Assembly: GCA_013166835.1 (NCBI GenBank)
Contig: JABLTI010000058.1
Coordinates: 1-17,123, forward strand
DNA length: 17,123 nt
DNA from: Promethearchaeati archaeon
GTDB taxonomy: Archaea > Asgardarchaeota > Heimdallarchaeia > JABLTI01
Reading direction: 5' to 3'
The position numbers were made by a program, and so were the translations under genes. Shown in pieces: positions 3,923-12,726 of the stretch (its first letter is position 1; the number at the start of each line of letters is the position of its first letter). The notes beneath the pieces are model-generated. The model was not told where the DNA came from. It made no database searches and saw only the letters and a program-made list of their open reading frames with translations.

Positions 3923-4366
3923 ATGCCAGGTAGTAAAGCCCCTAGAGGCGAATACGCGGGACGACAATTAAAAAAGAAACGTAAGAAGTTCCGTTGGAAA
4001 GATATTTACTACAAGAGAAAAATGTTAGGATTAGATAAGAAAGCTGACCCTCTTGCAGCAGCCCCACAAGCATCGGGAATTGTAGTAGAAAAATATGGGG
4101 TAGAATCCAAACAACCTAACTCAGCTCTTCGTAAATGTGTACGTGTCCAACTCATTAAAAATGGTAAACAAATAGGAGCTTTTGTCCCACTTGACGGTGG
4201 ATTAACCCACATTGCTGAACACGATCGTGTTATCGTTGAAGGTATTGGTGGTGCAAAAGGTGGTGCCAAGGGTGACCTTCCGGGCATCAAGTGGCGTGTT
4301 TCTAAAGTCAATGGTGTTGCTCTTTCAAGTTTAGTGTATGGCAAAAAAGAGAAGCCAGTAAGATAG
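3923..4366 (+). CDS. rps12: 30S ribosomal protein uS12 (archaeal S12/S23 type)
   Basis: [25 protein letters not shown]; [20 protein letters not shown]; [15 protein letters not shown]. Confidence 0.98.
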
Positions 4367-4376
4367 GTGTATGAAT

Positions 4377-4760
4377 ATGTCTAAATCAACAAAAGAAAAG
4401 GACGCTAAGAAAACAAAGGCAGATTCTAAGAAGAAAAAGGCAGCTGCTGCCAAAGATGATAAAGCTGCAAAAAAGGCAACTAAAGCAACTACTACTAAAG
4501 CAAAGAAGAAAGAAGACCCAAAGAAGAAAGTCACACCTACAAAAGAGAAGAAAGAAACCAAAACTACTCCCGCAAAAGAAATTAAAGCTAAAAAACCTGC
4601 TGAATCTAAAAAAGACGCTGCTCCCAAAACTGCTCCAAAGAAAGAAACAGCAAAAGTTGAAAAACCAAAAACAGCTCCTAAAGCTAAAAAACCAGAAGCT
4701 GTAACTCCCAAACCAGCTCCAAAAGCTGCCAAACCAAAAACTCCTCCAAAAGAAGATAAG
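4377..4760 (+). repeat. Low-complexity coding region with imperfect PK(T/P)APK / TPxK repeats
   Basis: Recurring DNA units such as aaaactgctccaaag, aaaacagctcctaaag, ccagctccaaaag and aaaactcctccaaaag. By hand count, 47 of the first 130 residues of the 4371-start ORF are Lys. Confidence 0.8.
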
Positions 4761-5351
4761 GAAGAAGTTGAGGTTATACCAATTTTTGATAACATAATGC
4801 TATTCAATCAATGGACCTATCAAGATCTAACAGTTGTTGATCCTGGGATAAAAGCTTACATCAGCTTAAGACCAGTAGTTACTCCTCACACTGGAGGACG
4901 GTATGCCCATCAAAGATTTAAGAAAGCTGAAATGCCTATTGTCGAAAGATTAGTAAATAAATTGATGAAAACCAAAAAAGGAACAGGTAGAAAAGAAAGA
5001 ATGATTAAATCTGTTCGAGTAGCTTTTGACATTATTAACTTACAAACAGGTAAGAATCCAATCCAAGTTCTCATTGATGCTATTCAGAATGCTGCCCCTC
5101 GAGAAGAAGTCACTCGAATCACCTATGGTGGTATGGCTCAACTACAATCTGTAGATGTTGCTCCAATGAGAAGAGTAGATATAGCTTTAACAAATATTGT
5201 AGAAGGTGTATACAAGAAATCCTTCAACAATATTCTCACAGCTGAAGAAATTCTTGCACGTGAATTAATTGATGCCGCTGATAACAAACCTGCAAGCTTT
5301 GCAATTGGTAAAATGCTAGAAATAGAACGAATTGCTCTCAGTGCAAGATAA
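4377..5351 (+). CDS. rps7: 30S ribosomal protein uS7 with a long Lys/Ala/Pro-rich N-terminal extension
   Basis: Core motifs LFNQW, PHTGGRYAHQRFKKAEMPIVERLVNKLM, NPIQVLIDAIQNAAPREE, SVDVAPMRRVDIAL and ERIALSAR. Directly downstream of rps12. The GGTG SD favours ATG 4377 (alternative 4371). Confidence 0.97.
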   Translation: MSKSTKEKDAKKTKADSKKKKAAAAKDDKAAKKATKATTTKAKKKEDPKKKVTPTKEKKETKTTPAKEIKAKKPAESKKDAAPKTAPKKETAKVEKPKTAPKAKKPEAVTPKPAPKAAKPKTPPKEDKEEVEVIPIFDNIMLFNQWTYQDLTVVDPGIKAYISLRPVVTPHTGGRYAHQRFKKAEMPIVERLVNKLMKTKKGTGRKERMIKSVRVAFDIINLQTGKNPIQVLIDAIQNAAPREEVTRITYGGMAQLQSVDVAPMRRVDIALTNIVEGVYKKSFNNILTAEEILARELIDAADNKPASFAIGKMLEIERIALSAR

Positions 5352-5368
5352 TTAATTCATAAAAATTA

Positions 5369-5398
5369 GCCCTTCGGGGCATCTATTTTATTTTTTAT
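5369..5398 (+). terminator. Hairpin plus T-tract terminator after rps7
   Basis: GCCC-TTCG-GGGC (cUUCGg tetraloop) at 5369-5380, followed by atctattttattttttat. Confidence 0.7.
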
Positions 5399-5516
5399 AA
5401 TTTATATCTATATTCGTTTTGTTTTCATTTAGTATCCTAATTTCTTTTATTATCAAAATAATAATTAATAAACGGGTAATCTAATAGAATCAATAAGAAA
5501 AGTAGGTGTCATTAAA

Positions 5517-5813
5517 ATGGATTATCAGGTTCTTTCCACTATACTAGGTGATTCTATTCAAGTGAAAATCGTTGAGTTCTTCATCATAAATAACACAGGA
5601 ATGTATCAACTAACAGAAATTGCCCGTATTTTAGGTATATCACATTCTCGAGTTCATGACCTGATCGATTCATTAGTGAAAATGCGAATTATACTAGAAA
5701 CTCGCTCGAAACGAAATCGATTGTTTGAGTTAAACAAAGATCATCCGATCACTAAACAACTGAGTGAACTATACAAAATAACGAGAGCATATTTGGTAGC
5801 AAGTCAGTATTAA
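5517..5813 (+). CDS. Winged helix-turn-helix transcriptional regulator (ArsR/MarR/TrmB-like)
   Basis: LSTILGDSIQVKIVEFF...LTEIARILGISHSRVHDLIDSLVKMRII...RLFELN; AGGTG SD upstream. Confidence 0.85.
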   Translation: MDYQVLSTILGDSIQVKIVEFFIINNTGMYQLTEIARILGISHSRVHDLIDSLVKMRIILETRSKRNRLFELNKDHPITKQLSELYKITRAYLVASQY

Positions 5814-5861
5814 GATAAAATTGATAATTGGCAAATTCTAATATTTGTATGAGTGATTAGA

Positions 5862-6605
5862 ATGAGTATGGAAGATAGAGAAAAACGCAACTTTCTTATG
5901 GAGCTAACAACTGATGCCCAATCCTTAATGTATCAAGGAAAGAAAAAAGAAGCACTAGAGTGCTATGATAAAATATTAGCTAAATATCCTGATGATATAA
6001 CTGTAATCTATGGAAAAGGTATGATTTATTTTGAATTCGATGATTTAAAAGAAGCAATTGTTTGTTTTAATAAAGCAATTGAGATTAATCCTGAAGATAT
6101 TGATTCATTATATGCGAAAGGTGCCATCTTAAGCTCTTTAGGTAAAAATGATGAAGCAATTGAGCTTTTTGATACTGTGATAAAACACGATACAAAATTT
6201 GTAATTGCTTGGCTAGCAAAAGGATATGCATTATTGAATATAGAAAAATCAGAAGAAGCATTACAGTGTTTTGTAGAAATAGAGAAACTTGGAAGAAAAG
6301 AAGTAGCATTAAGTGGAAAAGGGCATGCATTAAGGAAATTAAATGAGCTAGAAAAAGCTACAAAATCTTATCAAGAAGCAATCAAAATAGATCCATATGA
6401 CCCCGAGGCTTTATTTGGATTAGGAATGATTGCTTACAAAAATGAGAATCTCAAAAGTGCAACTAAATTTCTTTATCGAAGTGTTATACAAGATGATGAT
6501 AATTTAGAAGCTTGGGAAATATTGGCTGAAATTTATAAGAAGACAAATGATGTTGAAAAAGAAAAAGCAGCTTTAACTAAAATCTCTGAATTGAAAGAAA
6601 AATGA
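5862..6605 (+). CDS. Tetratricopeptide repeat protein
   Basis: About 7 TPR units (ALECYDKILAKYP; GKGMIYFEFDDLKEAIVCFNKAIEINP; AWLAKGYALL; YQEAIKIDP). The start could be 5853, 5862 or 5868. Confidence 0.9.
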   Translation: MSMEDREKRNFLMELTTDAQSLMYQGKKKEALECYDKILAKYPDDITVIYGKGMIYFEFDDLKEAIVCFNKAIEINPEDIDSLYAKGAILSSLGKNDEAIELFDTVIKHDTKFVIAWLAKGYALLNIEKSEEALQCFVEIEKLGRKEVALSGKGHALRKLNELEKATKSYQEAIKIDPYDPEALFGLGMIAYKNENLKSATKFLYRSVIQDDDNLEAWEILAEIYKKTNDVEKEKAALTKISELKEK

Positions 6606-6730
6606 ATTCTATCTAAGTAAATCCTCGGTAAATTTATTTCTCAAAGGTCTTTTTCAGCATGCTCGCAAAACTTATCTTTTACTAAAACAGTTTTAAATTG
6701 GAAATTACTTTCCAAGGAAAAAAGACGAAT

Positions 6731-7420
6731 ATGTTTGTAGTAAAAATTGGTGGATCAATATTATTTGATAAAGAAAACCAAATTAATGATAAACTGATTT
6801 CAAAATATGCAAAAACCATTCGAAATGTAATAAATAATACTGAGAAAAAATGTTCAATAATTGTGGGTGGAGGGAAACTAGCAAGAAAATATATAGATAT
6901 AGCTCGAAAGTATGGAGCTTCCGAAGAGGCTAGTGATATTATTGGTATAGAATCTGCTAAACTAAATGCTCGATTACTAATCTCAGCATTAGGCGAGAGT
7001 GCTTATCCCACTCCCCCAAACAACTTAGAGGAATTTCAGGAATTTTTCAAGCAAACCAGGAAGGTGATTGTTTGTGGTGGATTCAAACCAGGTCAGTCCA
7101 CAAATGCTGTTGCAGCATCGATAGCTGAAACAACAAATGCTGAGAAACTGATTAATCTCACAAATGTTGAAGGTGTTTATTCAGATGATCCTGGAAAAAA
7201 TCCGGAAGCAAAATTACTTGACAAAATTACAATTGCTGAGCTAGAAACAATGATGTCAAAACATCAAATCAAAGCCGGTTATTACCCTCTATTCGATCCT
7301 ACAGCTATTCAAATAGTCAAACGCTCGAAAATTCCATTACAATTCGCAAGTGGTCATAATCCAGAAAACCTGACTAAAATTATTTCTGGAGCAAAGATTG
7401 GAACAACTGTAATCTTCTGA
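6731..7420 (+). CDS. pyrH: UMP kinase (archaeal type)
   Basis: VVKIGGS, IVGGGKLARKYI, DIIGI, GGFKPGQSTNAVA, TNVEGVYSDDP, FDPTA and GT near the C-terminus. ATG 6731 matches the family N-terminus (the track start is TTG 6698). Confidence 0.95.
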   Translation: MFVVKIGGSILFDKENQINDKLISKYAKTIRNVINNTEKKCSIIVGGGKLARKYIDIARKYGASEEASDIIGIESAKLNARLLISALGESAYPTPPNNLEEFQEFFKQTRKVIVCGGFKPGQSTNAVAASIAETTNAEKLINLTNVEGVYSDDPGKNPEAKLLDKITIAELETMMSKHQIKAGYYPLFDPTAIQIVKRSKIPLQFASGHNPENLTKIISGAKIGTTVIF

Positions 7421-7432
7421 TTACAAATATCC

Positions 7433-7481
7433 CCTTCAATTACTACAGAATACTCATTTTCCTTGGAGAAATAATTGAAGG
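7433..7481 (+). promoter_or_regulatory. 10-bp inverted repeat overlapping the putative RBS of the nuclease gene
   Basis: CCTTCAATTA (7433-7442) and TAATTGAAGG (7472-7481), separated by a 29-nt spacer. Confidence 0.45.
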
Positions 7482-7491
7482 ACGTTAAACT

Positions 7492-9027
7492 ATGAATGTT
7501 GTACAACAAAATGAACCAGGTGAAAACCCTGATCAAGAAGAAAAAGAACAAGAAGTTAATGAAGAAGAAATTACTGAAGAAGATGAAGGACCAGGCAAAT
7601 TTGATAAAGAAGAATATATCTACCAGAAACTCGTCAAGAAAAGAAACCATACGTATTCATGTATTGCAAATGTGTTGAAGAATTATAATCATAAACATGT
7701 TCTTAATGCTTTTATTCCTGAAAGAGAAAAACTTGCTATGAGATTGGCTACAATTCTCATGACGAAAGATGGTCTCTCTGCAAGTGATTTCAGCAATTTA
7801 TCTATTTCATCAACCTCTACAAGTCAAGAATCACAAACAACAAATGAGATCATAAGTTTATCAGCTATTAATTTCTTAATTAATCAAGTCCATTCTCTAT
7901 CTGCTGATGACGATGGTGAAATGGAATTTTCAGATGATGCAAAGAAACACCTCACAGAGCTCGCAATAGAATGGGCTCAACTTCGAGATCAAGCCTTTAT
8001 GTTCTCTAATGGAATGATTAAACTTGAATATGAATTACATGATAATCTTCATTTCATTGAAACTGAATTGTATTTTGAAACAGAAAGAAAATTGAAGAGC
8101 ATAGGAATAGATCAAAAAACTGGAACAAGTACGAAATTAAAGGAGAAGAGAGATCAACGTCGTAAAATGACCGACAGAACCATTACTGAACTAGTTGATA
8201 TGGTGAAATCTTGGCATAGTGAAATAGCATTTCTGCGAAGGATCACTGAATTTTATGCTTCTATGAGGCAACTAAATGAGGAGGAAATTGAAGCATTATC
8301 AATTCTTTTTGAAAACTTTGGTCCTTTAATGGCATTAAAAGATCTGAAGAATCCATTTAAAGAAATAAAAATAACGCATATAGAGGAATTACAAGGAAAA
8401 AGAGAAAGTTTGGGTCCAACCGAAGAAATGAGATTATTACTATACGAAACAATCATGACTTTCCAACTTGGAAAAGAAGACGTTCCGTACTTCCTCTGTA
8501 GAATTATTACAAAGAAAAACGAAGAATATCTGCAAATTCCTATAATTTCATTACTCCTGTTCTCAAGATTCTGCAATTCATATGGTGAAACAACAAGAAG
8601 CAAAAAAGCCCATGATCTAGAACTAATTGTTTCAGAGATATCTGAATTAGCTGGATGGATGGTTGTAGACCAAAATGTCGAAATATTGAGTGAAGGAGAT
8701 ACTGTTACTGAGATTGATTTAATCATTCGCAGAAATAAAACAGATATAATAGTTGAAGTAAAAGATTTGGCTCTCTGGAGAGGATGGTATTTTGACCGGG
8801 AAAGCCTCATCAAAAGATACGAGATTTTCGCAATAGCTGCAAAGAAATTAAGAGAAAGAAGATTACTACTAAAAACAACAAATGCTAAACTGCTAATAGT
8901 TACTGCTTTAAACGAACGATGGAAAAAAGTAGATGGAATACCAATAGTGCCACTCAAATCATTAAACAAATACCTCAAGAAGCTTAAAAGACTAGAAAGT
9001 AAAAGATCAAAACCCGCGAGAAGATAA
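7492..9027 (+). CDS. Large protein with a C-terminal PD-(D/E)XK (restriction endonuclease/NERD-like) nuclease domain
   Basis: KAHDLELIV...GW...EIDLIIRRNKTDIIVEVKD gives the E...D-x12-EVK catalytic motif (about 8710-8763). The N-terminus is acidic and the middle is helical and unassigned. Confidence 0.75.
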   Translation: MNVVQQNEPGENPDQEEKEQEVNEEEITEEDEGPGKFDKEEYIYQKLVKKRNHTYSCIANVLKNYNHKHVLNAFIPEREKLAMRLATILMTKDGLSASDFSNLSISSTSTSQESQTTNEIISLSAINFLINQVHSLSADDDGEMEFSDDAKKHLTELAIEWAQLRDQAFMFSNGMIKLEYELHDNLHFIETELYFETERKLKSIGIDQKTGTSTKLKEKRDQRRKMTDRTITELVDMVKSWHSEIAFLRRITEFYASMRQLNEEEIEALSILFENFGPLMALKDLKNPFKEIKITHIEELQGKRESLGPTEEMRLLLYETIMTFQLGKEDVPYFLCRIITKKNEEYLQIPIISLLLFSRFCNSYGETTRSKKAHDLELIVSEISELAGWMVVDQNVEILSEGDTVTEIDLIIRRNKTDIIVEVKDLALWRGWYFDRESLIKRYEIFAIAAKKLRERRLLLKTTNAKLLIVTALNERWKKVDGIPIVPLKSLNKYLKKLKRLESKRSKPARR

Positions 9028-9061
9028 TCTCTTCTCATTCTTTTTCCAAAGCAGCTATCAG

Positions 9062-9826
9062 TTAATTAAGGGATTCTTTTTCTTCAGCCCTTATCTTCTT
9101 CAAAGTTTTTATTTCAATAATACTGTCTTCATCTTCATCTGGTAAGGGGTGTAAATTATCAAATCGTCTTAGCAAATCAAAATAGACTATGATTTGCAGA
9201 ATAGCAGCAATATATGAAAACATGTGCATAAAGATCAATGCAACACTATCTGTGTAGTCAATATTAACAAGATTTAAGATATTGCTGATAGGATAAACCA
9301 AGGCAAAAAATCCGAAGAGATAGGGAAGAGGACCTCTGCCATAACCAATACCTGCCCTATTACGCAATTGATTTTGGAATATATCAAAAGTAATGAAAGT
9401 CACAATTATTAGTAGTGTGGTAGACAGATCAAAAATCTGAATAAGATTGTACAAAAATTCCTGCATAATTCCACTTGCTAGCTCAGTAATTCGGAAGAAA
9501 ATGTATGCTATCTTTATCCCAACTTGAATGACCAAAAGAGTTGCAGCTAAAACCCCAAATTTGGAAAATCGTAAATAATAAAATCCTAATAATATCATTC
9601 CTACTGCTAAAGTCACAATGAAAATCAAATATATGGAATTTGTAACTATTTTTTCGATGGGTTCAAAAGTCGCAGGAGGGTTGCCACCAAAAGTAGTATG
9701 AATAACTATGAATCTAATTAATGTCCAAGCAGTATCAATTACCAATAAAGCGATGAGCATCCTTGTTCCAAGCTTTGAGAGATACTTAGCATATCGATAA
9801 CTTATTCCCATAAAATTATCCGCCAA
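9062..9826 (-). CDS. Integral membrane protein (about 6 TM helices), function unknown
   Basis: Six hydrophobic segments of about 20 aa and a charged C-terminal tail; TTG start. Confidence 0.8.
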   Translation of the reverse strand: MADNFMGISYRYAKYLSKLGTRMLIALLVIDTAWTLIRFIVIHTTFGGNPPATFEPIEKIVTNSIYLIFIVTLAVGMILLGFYYLRFSKFGVLAATLLVIQVGIKIAYIFFRITELASGIMQEFLYNLIQIFDLSTTLLIIVTFITFDIFQNQLRNRAGIGYGRGPLPYLFGFFALVYPISNILNLVNIDYTDSVALIFMHMFSYIAAILQIIVYFDLLRRFDNLHPLPDEDEDSIIEIKTLKKIRAEEKESLN

Positions 9827-10028
9827 ATCAATTTGATAATAAGTAATGCGATTTTACAAACTATTTCAATAAAGTTCTTTGTATTAAAATAATTTGTTCA
9901 TATTCTTGTTTCTGTTATTAACGATGCAAAGAGCAAAACTAACTCGAAAAACAAAATAATTACTCACGAAACTAGTAGTTACTCACATAAATAGATATAT
10001 TTAAAACGTTTGTTTTACTAAAAACTAT

Positions 10029-10118
10029 TTGCTGTAAAAGCAATCCGAAAAAAAGGAAAATAAATTATTAAGGATAAATTAAAATAACTAATCTTTCCGA
10101 ATTTTGCTCAAAGAGCAA
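10029..10118. promoter_or_regulatory. Two copies of palindrome TTGCT-N5-AGCAA, candidate operator for grpE-dnaK
   Basis: TTGCT-GTAAA-AGCAA at 10029-10043 and TTGCT-CAAAG-AGCAA at 10104-10118. A partial copy, CAAAGAGCAA, is at 9927-9936. Confidence 0.5.
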
Positions 10119-10150
10119 GTATTTCATAAAAATTGGAGATTGATTAATAA

Positions 10151-10807
10151 GTGACTGAATCAGAAGAAGAGACTATTGTATCAGAGGTCGAAGAGATTAT
10201 TAAAGCATTGGAAAAAGATTCGAAAACACAGAAATTGATCAAAGAATTAGATAAGATTCTAGATGGAATTAGTCTAAAAGATATTCTCGTTACAAATAAA
10301 AAAATGATTACAGATGCTGAACAAGCGAAAAAAGAGAAGGAAGAATACTTGTCTTTGCTACAAAGATTTAAAGCAGATTTTGAAAATTACAAGAAGCGTG
10401 CTCAGAAACAAGCAGATAACAACGTTCGATATTCCTCCGAAAAAATCCTTTCTAAAATCTTTAATCCAATTGAGAATATTGAAAGAGCAATTGAATTTGC
10501 AAAAGAGAACAATAAAGAAACAGTTCCTTTAGAAGGTATCAAAATAATCCAAGGACAATTATCTCGAATATTAGAGGAAGAAGGAGTAGCACTCATTAAT
10601 CCTATACAAGGGGAGAAATTCGATCCTTTCTATCATGAAGCAGTTTGTGTTGATCCCACAGGAAATTTTGAGCCTGGAGTAGTCGTTCAATTACTTGAGA
10701 ATGGGTACAAAATAAAAGAAAAAGTGATGCTTGCAGCAAAAGTTATGGTTTCAGCAGAAAAAGAAGAAACCAAAGAAGAAGTAGAAGAAGAAAAACTAAG
10801 TGAATAA
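10151..10807 (+). CDS. grpE: Nucleotide exchange factor GrpE
   Basis: LQRFKADFENYKKR, IENIERA, GEKFDPFYHEAV, GYKIKEKVMLAAKVMV. Adjacent to dnaK; GTG start with a GGAG SD. Confidence 0.96.
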   Translation: MTESEEETIVSEVEEIIKALEKDSKTQKLIKELDKILDGISLKDILVTNKKMITDAEQAKKEKEEYLSLLQRFKADFENYKKRAQKQADNNVRYSSEKILSKIFNPIENIERAIEFAKENNKETVPLEGIKIIQGQLSRILEEEGVALINPIQGEKFDPFYHEAVCVDPTGNFEPGVVVQLLENGYKIKEKVMLAAKVMVSAEKEETKEEVEEEKLSE

Positions 10808-10833
10808 TTAATAATAAATAAAGGTGACAAAAT

Positions 10834-12726
10834 ATGGCAAAAGTTGTTGGTATAGATTTAGGAACCACAAATTCCGGAATTGCATATATGGAAGGTGGAA
10901 CACCAACCATTATTCCAAATGCTGAAGGTGGTAGAATCACTCCATCTGTTGTTACAATAACAGAAGATGGCGAGCAAATTGTTGGTGAAATAGCTAAAAG
11001 ACAAGCAATATCAAAACCAAAACGAACAATTCGCTCTATCAAACGAAAAATGGGTTCTACTCATAGAGATAGAATTGATGGTAAAGATTACACCCCACAA
11101 GAAATTTCTGCAATGATTCTAAGAAAATTAAAGAAGGATGCAGAAGATTTCCTAGGAGAAGAAATAAAACAAGCTGTAATTACTTGTCCAGCATATTTCA
11201 CTGATAGTCAAAGACAAGCTACAAAAGATGCAGGAAAAATAGCAGGATTAGAGGTTTTAAGAATAATTAATGAACCAACTGCTGCTTGTTTGGCCTACGG
11301 AGTAGGAAAAGAAAAAGAAGAAACAATTCTAGTTTTCGACCTTGGTGGAGGAACATTCGATGTTTCTATTCTTGAAACCTATGTTGAAGAAGGAGACACA
11401 ATGTTTGAAGTAAAAGCCACTAGTGGTAATAATTTGCTAGGTGGAGATGATTTTGATGATAGAATCATAAAATGGGTTGTTGAGCAATTCAAGAAACAAG
11501 AAGGAATTGACATAACCAAGAATGCTTCAGCTATGCAACGAATTAAAGATGCTTCAGAAAAGGCTAAAATGGAATTATCATCAAAACAAAGAGCTTTTGT
11601 TGACATCCCATATGCTACTGTAGATAAAGAAGGGCAACCAATCAATATAAACTATGAAATTACTAGATCACAATTCCAAAGAATGACTGATGATCTAATA
11701 GAAAAAACTATGGGACCAACAAGACAAGCACTTAAAGATTCAAAGAAGAAAGCATCTGAAATTAACAAAGTCCTTCTTGTAGGTGGAGCTACTAGAATGC
11801 CTGCTGTGAGAGATGAAATTGCTAAAATGTTCGGGGAAAAGACAATCTATAAAGGAATTAATCCTGACGAATGTGTTGCAATAGGTGCAGCAGTGCAAGC
11901 TGGAGTAATAAAAGGTGATGTAAAAGATGTTCTTCTTTTAGATGTTACTCCATTAACTCTTGGAATTGAAACACTCGGACAAGTATTCACTCCAATTGTT
12001 GACAGAAACACAACTATACCCACAAGTAAAAGTCAAATCTTTTCAACAGCAAGTGACAATCAACCAAGTGTAGAAATCCATGTCTTACAAGGCGAAAGGA
12101 AATTTGCGAAAGATAATGTTACATTAGGAAAATTCCAGTTAATTGGAATCCCTCCCGCACCACGAGGTGTCCCTCAAGTTGAAGTAACCTTCGATTTGGA
12201 TGTCAATGGAATCGTATCAGTAAAAGCAAAAGACCTTGGAACTGGAAACGAACAAAAAGTAACCGTTTCATCACCAAGTGGTGTTGACAAAAAGGATATA
12301 GAGGAAATGGTCAAAAATGCAGAGCAATACGAAGAAGAAGATAGTAAACGACTTGAAGAAGTTCAGTTAAAGAATGAAGCAGAACATCTCGTTTACAGTG
12401 TTGATAAGGTACTCAAAGATTTCAAAGATAAAGTAACAGAAGAAGAAACCAAATCTGTAAAAGAAAAGCAAGAAGAACTCCGACAAGTTTTAGCAACAGA
12501 TGACTACGATGACATCAAAAAGAAGAAAGAAAGCCTAATGGAAGAATTACAACAAATCTCCTCTAGAATATATCAACAAGCTGGTGGACAACCAGGAGCT
12601 GGTTTTGATCCAAGCCAATTTGCCGAAGGAGCAGGACCATCATTTGCTCCTCCTGGCACACAAGAAAAACCAGAGGAAGAACATGTTGTTGATGTTGACT
12701 ACGAAGTCGAAGAAGACGAAGAGTAG
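10834..12726 (+). CDS. dnaK: Molecular chaperone DnaK (Hsp70)
   Basis: [79 protein letters not shown]. Confidence 0.99.

Follow-up and report, generated by a model that had tools for sequence, protein, structure and literature searches.

The uS7 locus and its N-terminal extension

The 17,123-nucleotide (nt) stretch analysed here, referred to below as the window, is contig JABLTI010000058.1 (C145) of the Promethearchaeati archaeon assembly GCA_013166835.1 (G000; 3.56 Mb in 260 contigs, 84.75% complete, 33.7% GC). It contains a gene for the ribosomal protein uS7 in which the conserved core is preceded by a long, lysine-rich N-terminal extension, here called the tail. The open reading frame (ORF) at 4371..5351 on the forward strand is stop-free and encodes 326 amino acids (aa), to which the residue numbers below refer. 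Residues 162–326 match the Ribosomal_S7 family (PF00177; score 126.2 bits where the cut-off is 24; E 1e-36; positions 3–148 of the 148-position profile), and the archaeal and eukaryotic uS7 chains in the PDB match residues 141–326 with a best E value of 4e-58. At E≤0.01, no other Pfam family is found anywhere in the protein. Translation of the frame and the Pfam match confirm the in-frame extension before the core that a first-pass annotation had reported from the DNA letters. The uS7 gene is single-copy in this genome (one match), with rps12 directly upstream. The features of the locus, all on the forward strand, are as follows.

3923..4366 (+): rps12 (uS12), first gene of the bicistronic unit (PF00164, E 1.8e-42), with its TAG stop codon at 4364–4366
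4365..4369 (+): Shine-Dalgarno sequence AGGTG, overlapping the rps12 stop codon and complementary to the congeneric 16S 3' end
4377..4379 (+): likeliest uS7 start codon (MSKSTKEK...), from the Shine-Dalgarno spacing and the like beginnings of P0003 and the closest orthologues
4377..4751 (+): polycationic low-complexity tail body, rich in K/A/T/P by composition, with TPTK at 4533, TPAK at 4566 and TPPK at 4740
4752..4775 (+): acidic junction EDKEEVEV (genus consensus EExExxE), in alignments the only internal tail segment kept across the genus
4776..4796 (+): IPIFDNI linker into the core (alignment consensus PxFxxI), where the PDB uS7 chains start aligning (residues 133–144)
4797..4799 (+): codon of Met143, an internal ATG peculiar to the source genome (AAG, Lys, in orthologues)
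4797..5351 (+): conserved uS7 core and stop codon (PF00177 at nt 4854–5348; PDB matches; confident structure prediction, scores 81–96)
5369..5396 (+): GC hairpin GCCCTTCGGGGC followed by T-runs, 18 nt past the uS7 stop, read from the sequence

Choice of the start codon

Two in-frame ATG codons directly follow rps12. The motif AGGTG lies 7 nt 5' of ATG 4377 and just 1 nt 5' of ATG 4371. No 16S rRNA was found in the source genome (84.75% complete), and congeneric genomes were used instead; the 16S 3' end of one of these, GGATCACCTCCT, is complementary to AGGTG(A), which identifies the motif as a true Shine-Dalgarno (SD) sequence. Since the spacing is usable at 4377 and a mere 1 nt at 4371, the likely start of uS7 is ATG 4377, read as MSKSTKEK... 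and preferred over ATG 4371. The same N-terminus, MSKSTKEK, begins the database protein P0003 and the nearest orthologues. For comparison across the GTDB genus (g1) we used 11 genomes including the source, of which ten hold a complete locus and the eleventh (G262) is cut at a contig end. The hexamer TAGGTG at the rps12 stop is kept in nine of the ten complete loci, and an ATG stands a few bases past that stop in the ten, so that the placement of the uS7 start right after rps12 behind an SD, as first annotated, holds up well.

The only further Met within the first 160 residues is Met143, encoded at 4797. A start at this codon (MLFNQW) had been named as a finding that would remove the tail. On reading the sequence, however, there is no SD 4–10 nt 5' of ATG 4797 (a GAGGT ends 22 nt upstream), position 143 is Lys (AAG) in orthologues, and T>A at 4798 is seen in a contig from the RNA library of a relative. 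In principle Met143 could yield a tail-less isoform, in the source species only and without a preceding SD.

Gene callers disagree on the start of uS7, and the tail has been lost from part of the databases. Two database entries, P0054 (the C-terminal part of P0037) and P0056 (of P0042), were called from an internal Met and comprise 185–192 aa, with cores identical to those in the entries of 316–321 aa. Tails of this kind are easily overlooked when entries are cut to the uS7 core.

Evidence that the tail is coding

All ten complete loci of the genus carry a long tail, with whole-protein matches that begin at residue 1–26 and open frames of 299–340 aa. In seven of them there is no in-frame ATG, GTG or TTG between the first ATG and the conserved core. 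Frame +1 is the sole stop-free frame, of six, common to all ten tails, and when the tail DNA of the source genome was shuffled by single nucleotides, frame 1 stayed open in 5 of 20,000 shuffles. The ratio of non-synonymous to synonymous substitution rates (dN/dS; Nei-Gojobori, NG86) over nine close pairs is 0.22–0.47 in the tail and 0.04–0.25 in the core, which points to relaxed but real purifying selection in the tail frame.

An assembly artefact, a concern raised at the outset, was rejected. The tail is present in orthologues and the identical protein (P0003) is found on 8 contigs of the protein collection. In a run from a separate study (X5), 96% of sampled sequence words are present, a value resting on word share, with 31 nt aligned as contig. 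Contigs from a metatranscriptomic library are 100% identical over 4340–4490 and 4654–4804. These are compatible with co-transcription of rps12, tail and core but are no proof of it, as library DNA is possible, nor of translation; gaps in their coverage of the tail are uninformative.

Composition, disorder and turnover of the tail

The 142 residues before MLFNQW comprise 33% K, 17% A, 11% T, 11% P, 9% E and 6% D, with 47 K+R against 21 D+E and a net charge of +26. Over the 133 residues encoded by 4377–4775 the lysine content is 35%, in good agreement with the ~36% and the K/A/P/T-rich character given in the first-pass annotation, whose three T-P-x-K motifs are also all present (TPTK, TPAK and TPPK). 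Its assignment of disorder gains support from an AlphaFold2 prediction with a 33-sequence alignment, in which residues 1–140 have zero secondary structure and a predicted local distance difference test score (pLDDT) of 37–50, compared with 81–96 for the core. On all of this evidence the tail is very probably both coding and disordered. A search of the ESM Atlas with the tail gave no usable feature match; its structural neighbours had template-modelling (TM) scores of 0.33–0.37 over ~50 residues, which are meaningless for a disordered segment.

Fifty uS7 tails of at least 60 aa, from related, non-independent sequences of the protein collection, were surveyed for composition. In 49 of these, K makes up 29–38% and the length is 92–166 aa, the fiftieth (P0048) being acidic with 20% K. 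Summed over the 50 tails, K outnumbers R by 2332 to 14, and hydrophobic and aromatic residues (FWYLIMC) amount to 3.3%. A distant outlier, P0083, has 5% D+E and a net charge of +49. Indels within the tail are frequent and in frame in the genus alignment, and P0024 and P0026 differ by a 15-aa tandem duplication. A tandem-repeat search of the source tail DNA found no repeat array, only a 15-nt AAAGAAG repeat. Judged from these alignments, the tail sequence turns over fast, by substitutions and in-frame indels, under relaxed purifying selection.

Distribution of uS7 extensions

A whole-protein search covered 301 genomes of the phylum and found a match in 287, all 11 of g1 included, with extensions judged among the 150 matches listed. 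Among these, the long K-rich extensions are those of g1 and of two genomes from a different family. Aligning uS7 among Asgard and other archaea, the check first proposed, thus returned a divided answer, the tail itself being kept across the genus while its TPxK motifs are not conserved. The two further genomes, G242 (L050, contig C279) and G245 (L051, contig C1), have 51% GC and carry a uS7 N-extension of ~110 aa with a K/A/T/P-rich first half and an acidic second half. Their congeners are without a K-rich tail and have short acidic extensions, and the K-rich tail of these two is an independent gain. Recoding in G242 and G245, considered in view of matches with a TAG inside, was rejected since the TAG is the in-frame rps12 stop codon.

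The sister genus (G256, L013) has a 32-aa acidic extension with a net charge of -11. In other families of the class, 17 of the 18 fetched loci have 2–14 residues before the core; the apparent 47 of L024 depend on an upstream TTG of doubtful standing, and an ATG sits near its core. The local GC content of the loci is 31–35% in family f2 and the sister genus just as in g1, and AT bias alone therefore does not make a tail; the gain of a K-rich tail by G242 and G245 at 51% GC likewise speaks against mutation bias as the sole cause. A search with the core only, restricted to proteins of at least 323 aa, found 26, all of this clade and with a core identity of at least 81%; this search needs shared 5-residue words and misses distant cases such as P0083 (352 aa, with an AKKAP-type tail).

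Short acidic (E/D-rich) uS7 N-extensions of 25–70 aa occur in many Asgard archaea (L013, P0048, P0051, P0053, P0055, P0058). The K-rich tail of g1 seems, from these comparisons, to have grown N-terminal to an acidic stub. The Micrarchaeota (L096–L111) have uS7 N-extensions of 50–85 aa which are rich in Q/A/E/P and not in K, for which reason these loci were rejected as matches to the tail. They do show that low-complexity sequence has grown repeatedly at the N-terminus of archaeal uS7.

Lysine-rich tails on other proteins of the genome

The tail had been presented as a peculiarity of uS7, a view that does not survive a scan of the whole genome. Of 3630 ORFs of at least 100 aa, 19 contain a stretch of 60 aa in which no fewer than 18 residues are Lys and no fewer than 45 belong to K/A/P/T/S/E. 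By Pfam assignment these include four ribosomal proteins (uS3, uS7, eL32 and uL18) together with the RNA- or DNA-linked proteins Rrp41 (RNase PH), Rpo7, aIF5B, Alba, the RFC large subunit, topoisomerase VI-B, a DHH/RecJ-like protein and two Rad51/RadA proteins, such that 13 of the 19 act on RNA or DNA. The rest are a PCI-domain protein, a TPR protein, a GltD-like oxidoreductase, a GCS2-like protein and two without a family. Besides uS7, the nucleic-acid-linked carriers and their coordinates are as follows.

K/T/A/P tails of 60–170 aa: uL18, eL32, uS3, Rpo7, Alba, aIF5B, topoisomerase VI-B, Rrp41, RFC large subunit, two RadA/Rad51, DHH/RecJ-like
Coordinates of these twelve: C251 (15662–16528, 17066–17851, 22126–23238), C33:3583–4230, C3:2576–3049, C58:5151–7145 and 9020–12373, C129:8883–9836, C148:13868–15436, C23:2871–4130, C110:6516–7844, C115:19425–21023

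The distribution of four of these tails was followed by searches of 31 related genomes. The extensions of uL18, eL32 and Rpo7 are confined to g1, with open frames of 277–339, 238–344 and 250–295 aa respectively, compared with ~195–226, 171–214 and 181–220 aa outside it; a few shorter g1 frames belong to genes that contig ends truncate or divide. In uS3, long C-termini occur more widely across the class. In a composition-corrected blastp comparison of the uS7 tail with the 18 other K-tailed ORFs, the tail matched only itself and nothing else fell below E 0.4. A shared or mobile tail cassette was rejected on this ground, and the lack of similarity among the tails argues for parallel, independent expansions. 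As far as these searches reach, K-rich tails of independent origin are found lineage-wide on ribosomal and RNA/DNA-handling proteins, and the uS7 tail is one of them.

Two further observations concern single carriers. Locus L037 (C125:12255–12827, reverse strand) is a 191-aa ORF with a K/T/P-rich N-tail of ~100 aa and a C-domain of ~90 aa without a Pfam match at E≤0.001; judging only by the eL33/L35Ae sequence pattern, this might be a divergent small ribosomal protein. The Rpo7 gene (C33:3583–4230) matches its congeners in two pieces (query 1–104 and ~96–216) that lie ~110–130 nt apart there, indicating either ~40 extra Rpo7 residues in the congeners or a deletion in the source genome.

Proposed function of the tail and alternative explanations

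The reading we favour, at a probability of roughly 0.5, is that the uS7 tail is a translated, disordered, K-rich extension which acts as a non-specific electrostatic RNA-binding arm; for the arm function taken alone, the odds are perhaps slightly short of even. In the archaeal 30S initiation complex, the chamber that holds the SD duplex and the exiting mRNA has one wall formed by uS7, eS28, h28 and h37, and the uS7 beta-hairpin gates the E site (PMC7005279, PMC9932298). A tail of ~140 residues on a protein that lines this mRNA-exit/SD chamber on the 30S head could sweep the solvent side of the head and, from its anchor at uS7, would be able to reach the exit region and beyond. There it would most plausibly bind RNA non-specifically, whether to catch or hold mRNA 5' of the ribosome, to screen the phosphate charge of the rRNA, or both. 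Nucleic-acid binding by the tail is plausible, and K-rich low-complexity regions (LCRs) of prokaryotic proteins have been linked to such binding (PMC6821194). Selection would then act on lysine density and length and not on the exact tail sequence; a role of this kind, set by composition and length, fits the narrow K fraction, a dN/dS below 1 and the free turnover of sequence.

Several observations weigh against this RNA-arm reading. Net charge is poorly kept within the clade, ranging from +3 to +33 with 13–29% D+E, and the fact that some tails are K/E polyampholytes makes a simple polycation model less convincing. In the tail alignment hardly any sequence is conserved save for the N-terminal MSKxxKxK and the acidic junction. 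The RNA-library contigs over the tail show at most transcription and not translation. The acidic extensions of the sister genus and other Asgard archaea and the Q/A/E/P-rich ones of Micrarchaeota suggest a terminus that tolerates many things, and the H1-like extension of fly L23a is tolerated and dispensable in yeast ribosomes (PMC1934995).

Several of these observations feed the strongest competing explanation, namely that the tail is a near-neutral low-complexity expansion, arising from A-rich codon runs by slippage or duplication at an exposed, permissive terminus, which is translated and tolerated but has no specific function. Fast turnover with frequent in-frame indels, of which the P0024/P0026 duplication is an example, the wide charge range and unconserved TPxK motifs, the unrelated extensions at the uS7 N-terminus of other archaea and the tolerated fly L23a extension would all be expected under it, and similar tails on many unrelated proteins are what a genome-wide mutational or drift regime predicts. 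However, the tail has been kept in all ten complete loci although synonymous sites are saturated (dS >1), and its dN/dS is 0.22–0.47 and not about 1. The 49 K-rich tails stay within the narrow bounds of K content and length given above, equally AT-rich relatives have no tail, 13 of the 19 K-rich tails sit on nucleic-acid or translation proteins, and the tail DNA lacks recent tandem repeats. Adding ~140 residues to a protein that ranks among the most abundant is also presumably costly. We regard a near-neutral origin as unlikely, albeit a serious contender.

The tail had also been called histone-H1-like, with the suggestion that it tethers ribosomes to the nucleoid or condenses nucleic acid under the control of proline-directed phosphorylation at S/TPxK motifs. 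A typical H1 C-terminal tail is basic, K/A/P/T-rich and disordered, with some S/TPxK, and in composition the likeness is real: the uS7 tail is basic, K/A/P-rich and disordered (over ~140 residues K 34%, A 17%, P 11%, T 11%, net +26; pLDDT <50). It contains three S/TPxK motifs against 0.77 expected by shuffling (p about 0.035), and the 50 related, non-independent tails contain 66 against 30.5 expected, about a 2-fold excess. A precedent is offered by the H1-like extensions of the insect proteins RpL22, RpL23a and RpS6, L22 having been reported to associate with H1 and chromatin (PMC1934995). The winged-helix domain of linker histones (PF00538) is absent, PF00177 being the one family that Pfam returns for the full-length protein at E≤0.01, and 15% of the tail residues in the source genome are acidic. 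The S/TPxK motifs are missing from 10 of the 50 tails and their positions do not align across the genus, the ten loci having 3, 2, 1, 2, 3, 0, 1, 0, 0 and 2 TPxK, which argues against a conserved proline-directed phospho-switch; the tail is probably not one, and no kinase has been linked to it. The Atlas search, with no usable match and structural neighbours below TM 0.4, adds nothing in favour of an H1-like tether. By these comparisons the H1 likeness is compositional only and the tail is not an H1 homologue, leaving a phospho-regulated DNA tether or condenser as a very improbable account.

Less probable again is the proposal that rRNA expansion segments peculiar to the lineage are bound or neutralised by the tail. 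Supersized expansion segments of the large-subunit rRNA are a known trait of Asgard archaea (PMC7594248), and several ribosomal proteins of the genus have K-rich tails at once. Against this, uS7 sits on the head of the small subunit (SSU), and the 16S rRNAs of three congeneric genomes measure 1491–1522 nt against a 1478-position model, a canonical length which means that SSU expansions are not the target of the tail; for the SSU, the binding of rRNA expansions put forward in the first annotation can thus be set aside.

Finally, the idea that the tail is untranslated, with a start at Met143 (4797) and 4377–4796 as an intercistronic leader, is scarcely credible: the source genome does have an ATG there and some related database entries are annotated short (P0054 versus P0037, P0056 versus P0042), but orthologues have Lys at this position, seven of ten loci offer no alternative in-frame start, no SD lies 4–10 nt upstream, and the conserved SD and ATG directly after rps12, the open frame in all ten loci and a dN/dS below 0.5 together make such a leader very unlikely.

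The RNA-binding arm can also be placed in a wider and much more speculative setting. One Heimdallarchaeal genus may have remodelled the surfaces of its information-processing machinery with independently gained K-rich tails, forming a selected polycationic 'fuzzy coat' over four ribosomal proteins or more (uS7, where mRNA exits; uS3, where it enters; uL18 and eL32) and also over Alba, aIF5B, RadA, RFC, topoisomerase VI, the exosome and a subunit of RNA polymerase. We consider this doubtful as it stands. If true, the association of ribosome, mRNA and nucleoid would be altered by charge screening, mRNA capture or condensate-like clustering, perhaps in an acetylation-tunable manner, and the coat would be a prokaryotic parallel, in the closest archaeal group to eukaryotes, to the basic extensions and segments resembling nuclear localisation signals of eukaryotic ribosomal and nuclear proteins. 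On its own the uS7 tail is a curiosity; the stronger lead is that a Heimdallarchaeal genus gained basic disordered tails in concert, lineage-wide, on its machinery for translation and genome maintenance. The host organisms are uncultured, which limits direct tests, and the tailed genus, its acid-tailed sister genus and untailed families at equal GC provide a natural comparison for the role of disordered basic appendages.

Surrounding genes

The hairpin and T-runs at 5369–5396 are likely, from their sequence, to mark the end of the rps12-rps7 transcript. The rps12-rps7 pair stands alone, in that elongation-factor genes do not come next (window positions 5352–12726). Instead, the region 3' of rps7 holds genes for a small helix-turn-helix protein, a TPR protein and an amino-acid kinase, two ORFs without a family, GrpE (10151–10807) and a 630-aa ORF (10834–12726).

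Comparison with known systems

Eukaryotic ribosomes are marked out by extensions of their proteins, and among known archaea it is the Heimdallarchaea that are most closely related to eukaryotes. The eukaryotic counterpart of uS7, Rps5, carries an N-extension at the same terminus which is species-variable, lies near the exit channel and cross-links to eIF2alpha and uS9/Rps16 (PMC9958902). It differs from the tail in being short, the uS7 chains in the PDB comprising 186–228 aa, and in yeast it is negatively charged, according to the title of reference 13 in PMC9958902. Homology between the tail and Rps5 N-termini was not detected with phmmer against 60 listed uS7 chains, where matches start at query positions 126–144 and none covers residues 1–125. 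Closer to the eukaryotic Rps5 extension than the K-rich tail are the short acidic ones seen in the sister genus and elsewhere among Asgard archaea.

With the C-terminal domain of linker histone H1, the tail shares basic, K/A/P/T-rich disorder and some S/TPxK motifs. It differs in the missing winged helix, the unconserved motifs, an appreciable acidic content and its attachment to a ribosomal protein. HLoB and HMpB, which are Asgard histones, are similar in that they, too, are abundant proteins which bind nucleic acid and carry disordered N-terminal tails with more than 30% Lys; such Lys-rich histone tails are acted on by an Asgard acetyltransferase (10.64898/2026.07.02.735847). Those tails are, by contrast, 16–32 aa long and sit on histone folds, and nothing ties the uS7 tail to acetylation.

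Close analogues are found in insects, where fly RpL23a (with an extension of ~135 aa) and RpL22 have N-terminal, and mosquito RpS6 C-terminal, K-rich extensions described as 'histone H1-like' (PMC1934995, PMC548281, PMC11764897). Like the archaeal tail, these are long K-rich appendices on a ribosomal-protein core, restricted to a lineage, with diverging sequence and persistent basic repeats, and there too the resemblance to H1 was judged convergent (PMC1934995, PMC548281, PMC11764897). They differ in affecting uL23, eL22 and eS6 and not uS7, and belong to another domain of life, whereas the tail is of independent origin in an archaeon without a nucleus. The archaeal tail has, in addition, 15% acidic residues and an acidic junction, and several further proteins of the same organism, ribosomal and other, are tailed as well.

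In the survey of prokaryotic LCRs by Ntountoumi et al. (2019), 117 archaeal ribosomal LCRs were counted, 17 of them with at least 30% Lys and read as nucleic-acid binding (PMC6821194). These share with the tail a terminal, surface-exposed position on ribosomal proteins, and IF-2 and topoisomerase are also frequent carriers (PMC6821194). The frequent archaeal carriers named in passages of that survey are, however, S3, S24e, L10 and L12 and not uS7, and the surveyed regions are mostly C-terminal and A/E-rich (PMC6821194). The uS7 tail lies at the N-terminus, exceeds them greatly in length and has counterparts throughout its genus. A full-text literature search, within the collection covered, found no description of a K-rich N-extension of archaeal uS7 or of a genus-wide set of tails. 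K-rich low-complexity extensions of ribosomal proteins can be taken as a descriptive class, distinct from a homology family, of terminal, disordered appendices that contain at least 30% Lys, are bound to a lineage and keep composition over sequence (PMC6821194, PMC1934995), all of which is seen in the uS7 tail. Such extensions are thus already known as a kind, to which the uS7 tail adds a member.

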